Sequence record: OR845258
DNA from: Escherichia phage ECO95 1-6-1
DNA length: 47,511 nt
Reading direction: 5' to 3' (one strand)
This document shows positions 36,640 through 37,148 of the stretch, piece after piece. Every line of letters begins with the position of its first letter. Position 1 is the stretch's first letter. The translations under genes were made by a program, and so were the position numbers. The notes under the pieces were generated by a model. It was not told the DNA's origin and made no database searches. It saw nothing but the letters and a program-made list of their open reading frames with translations.

Positions 36640-36668
36640 TTGACAGTGATTATTTTGTGGTGTAGATT
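36640..36668 (+). promoter_or_regulatory. sigma70-like promoter driving the leader RNA and tRNA
   Basis: TTGACA + 17 nt + TAGATT immediately after the Rha stop; no ORF downstream before the tRNA. Confidence 0.5.
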
Positions 36669-36669
36669 T

Positions 36670-37038
36670 GGAATTAACAGCGATTGGTTCCCTGATTTCA
36701 TTTAATTACAGCCAATCCTTCAATTACAATTAGCGGTCGAGAGACGCCGGACGCGTAACCGGCACACAACAGGTAAGAGCATTGGGTAATGTCAGCCTTG
36801 GTTCGAAGTTGAAAGACATGCGGTAATACCCAGCCCAAGTTCCAGTGCTCTTTCCGTTGAGGTGAATGAGCTAGATGGTGAGGTAAAGGCTCACCATGGC
36901 GACGAATGCAGTCCGGGATAGCACCGGACACCACAACACTTAACATCCAGCATTATCGCAATCATATGTAGGGGTATGTATGGGTTACGGGGCTGGGTGT
37001 TAAGAAAGCACGCTGGCAATGCTTAAACCAGCACTTAT
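36670..37038 (+). ncRNA. candidate structured non-coding leader RNA upstream of the tRNA
   Basis: About 370 nt with stops in all plus frames, normal GC, several short inverted repeats (GCCGG...CCGGC, GGTGAGG...CTCACC, TCCGG...CCGGA), and its own promoter. Confidence 0.25.
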
Positions 37039-37115
37039 GGACGCGTAGCTTAATTGGTTAAAGCAACCGACTCATAATCGGCTGATTGAAGGTTCAAATC
37101 CGTCCGTGTCCACCA
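37039..37115 (+). tRNA. tRNA with anticodon CAT (Met, or Ile if lysidine-modified)
   Basis: Cloverleaf: acceptor GGACGCG/CGTGTCC with one G-U pair, D-stem GCTT/AAGC, anticodon loop CTCATAA, T-loop TTCAAAT, 3' ACCA; one mismatch in the T-stem. Confidence 0.8.
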
Positions 37116-37118
37116 AAT

Positions 37119-37148
37119 TAAAAGCCGCTTTATGCGGCTTTATTTATT
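37119..37148. terminator. bidirectional rho-independent terminator
   Basis: Hairpin AAAGCCGC-TTTAT-GCGGCTTT followed by ATTTATTT, between the tRNA and the convergent minus gene ending at 37144. Confidence 0.55.

Follow-up and report, generated by a model that had tools for sequence, protein, structure and literature searches.

Within the 47,511-nucleotide (nt) stretch of Escherichia phage ECO95 1-6-1 analysed here (OR845258; the window, taken at its full length), positions 36640-37150 carry a single plus-strand unit made up of a sigma-70-type promoter (36640-36668), about 370 nt without a conserved open reading frame (ORF), a transfer RNA gene with a CAU anticodon (tRNA(CAU); 37039-37115) and an intrinsic terminator (hairpin 37121-37141), elements that lie where a preliminary description of this DNA had placed them. 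The phage is a Skatevirus-like Salmonella siphovirus whose region is 100% identical to that of S.Kent 1-2-1 and 80-85% identical to those of Seszw and Skate. The unit runs antisense to the tail genes, and in eight relatives picked by BLAST, the set used for comparing conservation, it is without exception flanked by the genes for the major tail protein and the tail terminator, which are encoded on the other strand. We argue that it is a self-contained stable-RNA operon and not a regulatory leader, a reading to which we assign a probability of about 0.5; comparison with related loci suggests a phage stable RNA with putative functions, built from widespread yet unannotated modules.

The predicted promoter has a -35 element TTGACA (36640-36645) and a -10 element TAGATT (36663-36668) separated by 17 nt, with 10 of 12 consensus matches and a probable transcription start near 36675. 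Promoter-like sites in the region are no more numerous than chance would give (4 found versus 3.5 expected), but a 30-nt promoter stretch is invariant (100%) in all eight relatives while its flanks vary. In the same comparison, the domain upstream of the tRNA that we call D is 94-98% identical and the flanking tail genes 85-93%. The terminator (37121-37150), an 8-bp stem and T run on the plus strand that is possibly weakly bidirectional, is kept in relatives, coming immediately after D in those without the tRNA. Directly upstream, as the preliminary description had it, is a Rha gene: the ORF at 35966-36631 has Pfam Rha and ANT domains. It belongs to a cassette (about 35876-36637), lacking in relatives, that brings its own promoter-like site and ribosome-binding site and is inserted exactly between two promoters, flanked on one side by the -35 element of the RNA unit and on the other by a minus-strand extended -10 element (TGATATAAT, 35862-35870) that faces the major tail gene. 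Rha, a later insertion, hence does not belong to the RNA unit. The neighbourhood is a hot spot for insertions, as shown by the HNH/AP2 homing-endonuclease genes found at a distance of about 0.5 kb in BS5 (locus L012, 2151-2642), swi2 (L014, 2058-2549) and Seszw (L001, 4098-4589); the window has none at this place.

The claim that no credible ORF exists in the roughly 370 nt after the promoter holds, and a search for a real small ORF with a ribosome-binding site returned no conserved one. Plus-strand ORFs between 36669 and 37038 are all at most 21 amino acids long, and the 82-amino-acid ORF on the minus strand (36698-36946) is not conserved: ORFs at that place in the closest relatives do not exceed 35 amino acids, and the homologous stretches are read in different frames. 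Hypothetical small minus-strand ORFs have been deposited across the unit in Skate (L007, 1384-1898) and Bas80 (L015, 797-1300); they are unconserved between relatives and probably spurious. The G+C content of the leader is indeed normal (48.1% versus 45.5% for the window), and its structure is a property of one strand, because plus-strand folding beats shuffled sequences (z = -2.96, with 0 of 100 shuffles as good) whereas minus-strand folding does not (z = -0.98). An Infernal scan of the whole window against Rfam 15 at gathering thresholds passed the tRNA alone, so the leader matches no family of that release; a permissive scan of 36500-37300 gave a best match within the leader of 9.9 bits, and a scan of 12 related loci returned just tRNAs, a look-alike of a 16S ribosomal RNA (rRNA) hairpin (below) and sub-threshold matches to transfer-messenger RNA (tmRNA). 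Nothing suggests a ribozyme, one of the identities proposed earlier. Within the window there are no further copies of the modules described below; one 14-nt match (37011-37024 versus 43869-43882; E = 0.08) has the wrong strand sense for a messenger RNA target.

Twenty-four distinct units share the promoter and D. They range from 400 to 878 nt and carry no tRNA (LPST49 and BS5), a tRNA-Met/Ile, or, as in IME207, tRNA-Ser plus tRNA-Arg instead. Since the tRNA is dispensable and exchangeable among units, the unit is not a leader serving the tRNA. Comparison of the units indicates that the putative leader is a mosaic of at least four RNA modules, each with its own distribution. Of the original proposal of a structured non-coding RNA co-transcribed with the tRNA, a conserved, structured, non-coding plus-strand unit thus survives; the single 370-nt leader does not, being a mosaic kept where the tRNA is absent or replaced.

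D (plus strand, 36939-37032) consists of a 13-bp helix (36939-36951/36992-37004), an inner hairpin (36962-36983) and a 3' hairpin, GCUGG-CAAUGCUUAAA-CCAGC (37012-37032). Across 20 distinct sequences (RNAalifold and pair counts), 99% of cells are paired, compared with 27-45% when the partner is slid, and pair 16:71 occurs as UA nine times, CG eight times and UG twice. One-sided changes all keep a standard pair, mostly as G.U, which argues for an RNA of the plus strand. D is present in units with or without a tRNA and is confined to the siphovirus group; beyond it, our covariance model R1 finds only partial relatives, one in L074 and another of 27 nt in St11Ph5, both N4-like contigs. As a coding region D was rejected, with stops in all plus-strand frames and unconserved minus-strand ORFs. 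The 20 nt of its core, TAGGGGTATGTATGGGTTAC, recur where two overlapping ORFs meet in L137 (1778-1797), L147 and L161, unrelated viral contigs in which the identity is probably due to chance.

A second module, the stalk-and-cargo hairpin (P-fw; plus strand, 36765-36861, 97 nt), is identified by covariation and by conservation across phages. It is a conserved imperfect stem of 19-20 pairs with a bulged A that closes an exchangeable 64-nt cargo (36782-36845); the window stem reads CACAAC-A-GGUAAGAGCA(UUG) and (CAG)UGCUCUUUCC-GUUGAG, the comparative form ending in GUUGUG. A strand-independent pattern search of all loci gave 126 distinct elements with 50 stem combinations, of which 47 variants were kept for pair counting. 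Among these, 92% of cells are paired, 10 of 15 pairs show two-sided changes, none of 500 shuffles attains even one of five measures, and G.U combinations outnumber A.C (about 31 versus about 14). The inserts fall into 66 unrelated clusters of 34-143 nt, many with a canonical T-arm. The window's own stalk and cargo recur at 96-98% identity in Klebsiella Lastavirus and Jedunavirus phages and in the N4-like coliphage St11Ph5, Gamaleyavirus also being among the matching groups. The stalk strand is the tRNA strand in 10 of 10 tRNA-bearing loci checked; stalks follow PR'-tR' in lambdoid prophages and tRNA genes in other phages, always in their orientation. With about two turns of imperfect double-stranded RNA on the transcribed strand, the stalk would make a plausible substrate for RNase III.

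An alternative interpretation is that the stalk works as DNA, as a cassette resembling a miniature inverted-repeat transposable element (MITE) or an integron attC site with terminal inverted repeats (CACAAC...GTTGTG), or that the unit acts by transcription itself, through convergent interference with the tail operon or its insulation. The inverted ends of roughly 20 nt, the variable centre, the extrahelical base and the movement of an element of about 100 bp as a unit between unrelated phages would fit the former, and the antisense placement among tail genes, back-to-back with the minus-strand extended -10 element of the major tail gene, the latter. We nevertheless consider both quite improbable because the element always takes the orientation of local transcription and of the tRNAs, tolerates changes with a G.U bias on the plus strand and has no transposase or integron integrase nearby, and because the same modules are co-directional with their neighbours in lambdoid phages. 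An integron attC or MITE identity was rejected on the same grounds: the ends ACACAAC/GTTGTGG fit RYYYAAC...GTTRRRY in part, no integrase or transposase is near, and orientation is strictly transcriptional.

The stalk extends to phage lambda, where an element at about 44787-44862 (L272, 988-1063) begins roughly 7 nt beyond tR', the terminator of 6S RNA, within the late leader, and is accompanied by a second domain (about 44857-44941; L272, 1058-1142) closed by GUUGUGCUG/CAGCACAAC. The lambda stalk region is without annotation in NC_001416 and J02459, and the lambda-type region is present in 435 of 5426 complete E. coli genomes and annotated in none. A paper by Daniels et al. (1988, Virology 167:568) reportedly describes, to judge by its title, sites at which RNase III processes the lambda late transcript in vivo, presumably at the position of the stalk. 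Stalk matches in Pseudomonas, Shewanella, Bacillus-group and other genomes come from low-coverage contigs (0.4-48.5 kb) with lambda's 43-nt insert and are therefore read as lambda DNA contamination. L175, L228, L248 and about 20 small low-coverage contigs assigned to Pseudomonas, Shewanella, Oceanobacillus, Enterococcus and others are about 48.4-48.5 kb long or fragments, with the lambda stalk version. Of 102 matches to a 17-mer of the stalk, about 70 are expected by chance. The modules of the unit are confined to phages of Enterobacterales.

Downstream of the stalk, positions 36856-36937 of the plus strand form a three-way junction resembling a tRNA, closed by GUUGAGGUG (36856-36864) and CACCACAAC (36929-36937), with the comparative form GUUGUGGUG/CACCACAAC. 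The closing helix is 7-9 bp in most units, its variants are wobble-compatible, and the lambda helix differs by a double compensatory change; RNAfold predicts a multi-branch junction in sister units. In most units the helix is followed by AA, a D-arm-like hairpin (GCGC-AGGCUGAU-GCGC or GCUC-AAUGGC-GAGC), a variable arm, a covarying hairpin with a 7-nt loop and RCCA; the D-arm-like hairpin, which most relatives retain, has been lost from the window copy, whose closing helix contains one A.A mismatch. The 7-nt-loop hairpin resembles a minihelix and reads GUCCGG-GAUAGCA-CCGGAC followed by A-CCA in the window (36911-36933, plus strand). Elsewhere its covarying stem appears as CAGG/CCUG with the canonical UUCGAUU loop, GCCGG/CCGGC, GUUUC/GAAAC, GUCUC/GAGAC or UCUGG/CCAGA, and RCCA is replaced by GCA in L141 and ACA in L139.

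The variable arm of the window junction is a hairpin (36870-36905, plus strand) whose stem, AUGGUGAG (36875-36882) and CUCACCAU (36890-36897), makes it a look-alike of helix 11 of 16S rRNA: 25 of 29 positions are identical to E. coli 16S nt ~254-282, and UAG/CUA is replaced by AUG/CAU in a compensated change. Fuller copies in L002 (2998-3044) and L006 (1498-1544) match small-subunit rRNA models at E = 2e-7. Look-alikes of this kind, with compensation in the stem, are shared by E. coli prophages, Klebsiella and Yersinia phages and the window. As a mimic of rRNA over its whole length the leader was rejected, since against the full rrn operon only this 29-40 nt piece stands out; GCGGTAATAC and other 8-10-mers show chance-level similarity.

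The mosaic could be mostly non-functional spacer, consisting of decayed tRNA genes and recombination scars in an insertion hot spot, with only the promoter, tRNA and terminator of consequence. Such decay would account for the strong mosaicism, the large indels, the gain, loss and swapping of tRNAs, the T-arm remnants in many inserts, the loss of the D-arm-like hairpin and the mismatches in two helices of the window copy, and the Rha cassette inserted at the same spot. It does not account for a D domain and a promoter that are more conserved than essential tail genes and persist without a tRNA, for substitutions in stalk, D and hairpins that preserve pairing, or for a stalk conserved from lambda to N4-like phages, and we regard it as improbable. 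The conservation and covariation that the preliminary description had named as a check are thus both found among relatives.

The remaining module, the 5' segment, differs between units in a way that bears on function. In the window it runs from 36669 to 36764 (about 92 nt) and has three small plus-strand hairpins: GAUUGG...CCAAUC (36684-36717; predicted by RNAfold, with relatives' variants keeping the pairing through G.U), GUC-GAGA-GAC (36736-36745; a compensatory GCC-GAGA-GGC in BS5) and GCCGG-ACGCGUAA-CCGGC (36746-36763; GCCCGG..UGGGC or CCCUGAG..UCAGGG instead in sister units). It replaces a module that in sister units, in a longer 5' segment, carries a reading frame without a start codon, exemplified by ..AGAUAAAU GCA AAC GAU GAU GUU GUU CUG AUG GCG GCG UAA (Bas80, swi2 and others). 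Such templates, of the form AN[DE][DE]xx[LM]xA[AV]-stop, occur in 11 of 24 sister units, two with a mutated resume codon or upstream context. All are without a start codon and have an in-frame stop 6-8 codons upstream wherever the upstream sequence is complete, and variation across the nine distinct tags is coding-like (ANDDVVLMAA, ANEEMYLAVA, ANDDQFLAVA, ANDEQFLAVA, ANEEVYLAVA, ANEEMYLAAA, ANDDLMLMAA, ANDDVVLIAA and one mutated copy). This putative tag module thereby shows the pattern of the tags encoded by tmRNA (SsrA). The templates are found in siphoviruses, N4-like phages and other viral contigs, at L015 897-931 (Bas80), L014 ~1003-1036 (swi2) and L004 1392-1424 (St11Ph5), and also in L029, L033, L041, L051, L053, L068, L082, L099, L101, L113, L118 and L128; several phages have a stalk on either side of the module. 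In St11Ph5 (L004, 1228-2647) a 1.4-kb non-coding stretch holds an odd 'tRNA-Ala(cgc)', the tag module, the window's stalk and cargo and a hairpin like the D core, together with at least four tRNA-like units (T-arm, acceptor-like stem and CCA) that ARAGORN does not call. The window 5' segment aligns weakly to the Bas80-type segment, without the tag, which suggests that it is a deletion derivative of it.

The tag module explains why sister units give weak matches to the Rfam tmRNA_permuted model (E = 0.002-0.01; 19-31 bits versus a gathering score of 47, covering the reading frame alone) and why ARAGORN calls a tmRNA in swi2. In the 15 other tag-bearing loci ARAGORN calls no tmRNA, and no canonical tRNA-like domain lies beside the tag module. 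Capture of the host gene was rejected for want of any similarity to E. coli ssrA, and the window itself yields no tmRNA with ARAGORN or with the Rfam tmRNA models at their thresholds. Our search of the literature on tag peptides and phage tmRNA-like RNAs found no description of the tag module; a 2014 tmRNA survey lists phage ssrA only for mycobacteriophages and Bacillus phage G.

Could the window unit, then, be a tag-less relative of a phage tmRNA-like system, in which the junction, alone or together with D, would bind SmpB, EF-Tu or the ribosome and modulate ribosome rescue by the host, while tag-bearing sisters would add degradation tags? The start-less SsrA-type templates with their nine coding-like tags, the weak tmRNA_permuted matches and the swi2 call point that way, as do the acceptor-like helix, D-arm-like hairpin and T-arm-like hairpin of the junction. 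A precedent exists in mycobacteriophage DS6A, whose RNA consisting of a tRNA-like domain only (TLD-only) is reported to inhibit tmRNA (PMC4131195, PMC11915505). We consider this reading unlikely, however, because the window copy is without a canonical tag, because its acceptor-like closing helix has U3:A70 instead of the G3:U70 of tmRNA and is internal, being followed by ACUUAA and not by a terminal CCA, and because every tmRNA match is below the gathering score and restricted to the reading frame, with no call in the 15 other tag-bearing loci and no similarity to host ssrA. The tag module is moreover located 5' of the junction and elsewhere is flanked by two stalks; it could therefore be released without any tRNA-like domain. 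A bolder version, to which we would give an outside chance, is that the unit is part of an undescribed multi-piece phage counterpart of tmRNA: a tag messenger would be excised by RNase III between two stalks, a stalk remnant would hold it to a separately folded tRNA-like module of the same transcript, and the assembly would tag or rescue stalled ribosomes in the infected cell. The window copy, tag-less or with an alternative tag (ANPSITISGRETPDA), would then modulate host ribosome rescue and not mark proteins for degradation, and the stalk would be a general phage device for RNA excision, even in lambda.

That alternative tag is the sole start-less candidate in the window, the frame ANPSITISGRETPDA at 36711-36758, and its reality as a peptide is doubtful; RNA pairing explains the conservation of the frame equally well. 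In IME207 (L013, ~1165-1230) and L166, a 19-codon ORF with a Shine-Dalgarno sequence (MKSQFEEVKIISGRQTPDA) shares the frame and the end of ANPSITISGRETPDA. The possibility that the unit encodes a small protein, from this frame or from the minus-strand ORF, draws on that ORF, which begins with ATG and ends ..IISGR(Q/E)TPDA as in the window, and on the opening of the window frame with Ala-Asn, like SsrA-type tags, after an A/U-rich stretch. We think it very improbable indeed, given that the window frame has neither a start codon nor a Shine-Dalgarno sequence, that PSH-1 has an in-frame TAG, that the apparently synonymous changes are equally explained by compensation in the GUC-GAGA-GAC hairpin, and that the minus-strand ORF is conserved in neither length nor frame.

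Each recognisable resemblance in these modules is to an RNA of the translation apparatus, which would also suit a decoy array whose modules, as mimics of tRNA arms, of a 16S hairpin and of a tmRNA messenger, would titrate the host's RNA-targeting toxins or defence nucleases, with the hypervariable cargo as the trace of an arms race. Phage tRNAs do counter anticodon nucleases, and the 66 cargo clusters within a conserved stem, exchanged between unrelated phages, would be expected of such a contest. The chance that this is right is in our view small, as the window copy yielded no identifiable anticodon-loop mimic, 16S helix 11 is not known as the target of any defence system, and D, the best conserved part, resembles nothing.

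The tRNA itself (plus strand, with an encoded CCA) is called by ARAGORN and scores 63.4 bits against Rfam RF00005 (gathering score 29), in keeping with the tRNA (CAT) and following terminator of the preliminary description. It is probably not a tRNA-Met but the AUA-reading, lysidine-type tRNA-Ile2. Near-identical tRNA bodies carry the anticodon (37072-37074) CAT in the window, PSH-1, swi2 and Bas80 and AAT in Seszw (L001, 3448-3524) and Skate (L007, 1918-1994), a one-base switch; the tRNA also matches at 85.5% prophage genes that are PGAP-annotated as tRNA-Ile and adjoin tRNA-Arg after Q. IleRS recognizes A73, C4:G69, U12:A23 and C29:G41, and MetRS the acceptor pairs G2:C71 and C3:G70. Read against these published rules, the window tRNA has A73, C4:G69, U12:A23, C29:G41 and A3:U70. 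TilS uses C5:G68; the window tRNA has G5.U68. The AAT anticodon in relatives, the prophage tRNA-Ile match and the IleRS pairs together point to tRNA-Ile2. In 19 long ORFs of the phage, ATA makes up 18% of Ile codons and 1.2% of all codons, roughly three times typical host usage.

The mechanism we favour for a stable-RNA operon follows from its layout. The conserved sigma-70 promoter would drive a primary transcript of about 475 nt comprising, in order, the 5' hairpins, the stalk and cargo, the tRNA-like junction (closing helix, helix-11-like arm and minihelix-ACCA arm), D, tRNA(CAU) and the terminator, modules that would fold independently and are exchanged horizontally. Host RNase III may cut the long stalk, as presumably happens in the lambda late leader, excising the cargo and separating the flanking RNAs, and RNase P would cut at the 5' end of the tRNA and release it, so that the precursor would be diced into the tRNA and several small stable RNAs. 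The tRNA could supply decoding of AUA, which the phage over-uses, and the accessory RNAs, which imitate parts of tRNA and rRNA (and of tmRNA in sister phages), may act on translation or RNA-processing factors, an action favoured because all recognisable resemblances are to tRNA, rRNA or tmRNA. The anatomy, the conservation, the plus-strand covariation, the modular exchange and the homology to tag-bearing units are observed; for transcription, for both cleavages and for every downstream function we rely on inference.

We caution that several points weigh against this interpretation. The stalk base (CACAAC/GUUGUG) and the junction closing helix (GUUGUG.../...CACAAC) compete for one GUUGUG and are mutually exclusive; both have comparative support, and in the window copy both contain a mismatch. 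True compensatory change is seen in just two pairs of D, so conserved is that domain. Concerted changes in two arms could also come from a DNA element whose ends are both bound by one protein, and the unit, antisense to the tail operon, may have a purely transcriptional role.

What was noticed in one phage thus leads to a conserved, covariation-supported RNA element that is unannotated in the lambda late leader and in hundreds of Enterobacterales prophages and lytic phages, an exchangeable cassette with hypervariable cargo. SsrA-type templates in coliphages, Salmonella phages and N4-like phages, uncalled by standard tmRNA finders, make phage manipulation of ribosome rescue directly testable. 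Gene callers place spurious small ORFs on the region (three in Skate, for example) and label the tRNA Met; both annotations merit correction.

Among known systems, GOLLD and ROOL are likewise structured non-coding phage RNAs beside tRNA genes, but the window unit has no Rfam match, is smaller and modular, and belongs to Enterobacterales phages only. The T4 species 1 and 2 RNAs (rnaC/rnaD) are small non-coding RNAs made from a phage tRNA precursor and released by processing. Their likeness to the window unit is that they are small non-coding RNAs co-transcribed with phage tRNAs; what sets the window unit apart is a predicted promoter of its own among the tail genes and a composition of exchangeable modules. 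Lambdoid rare-codon tRNA morons of the ileZ-argN-argO type are similar in that tRNA(CAU) is related to prophage tRNA-Ile genes beside tRNA-Arg downstream of Q, sister units carry tRNA-Arg(UCU) with tRNA(CAU), and the phage makes frequent use of ATA, AGA and AGG codons; here, in contrast, the tRNA belongs to a virulent-type siphovirus and would be transcribed from its own predicted promoter among the tail genes, after about 370 nt of structured RNA. Y RNAs such as YrlA combine a long stem with a module imitating tRNA arms, are also found in phages and bear a GNCGAAN0-1G Rsr-binding motif near the 5' end (PMC4201824). A YrlA identity was rejected: the window ORF list has no rsr gene, the stalk has no GNCGAAN0-1G, Rfam gives no match at E up to 10, and the single GACGAAUG at 36898-36905 probably resembles the motif by chance.

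The closest parallels are with tmRNA and with RNase III processing hairpins. The tmRNA family (SsrA, with its two-piece and permuted forms and the TLD-only RNA of DS6A) resembles the sister units in their start-less ANDENYALAA-type templates and the unit in a tRNA-like domain with acceptor-, D-arm- and T-arm-like parts; it differs in the G3:U70 and terminal CCA that the closing helix here lacks, and in a messenger that here is 5' of the tRNA-like domain, separable from it and, in the window copy, tag-less. Compared with the RNase III hairpins of phage polycistronic transcripts (lambda late transcript, lambda N leader, sib, T7 R1.1), the window-type stem closes a hypervariable cargo of 34-143 nt and travels as a cassette across phage families, and its cleavage is predicted; it shares with them a long, imperfect, bulged double-stranded stem within a transcript, in the direction of transcription, and with the lambda late leader the same stalk sequence directly after tR'.

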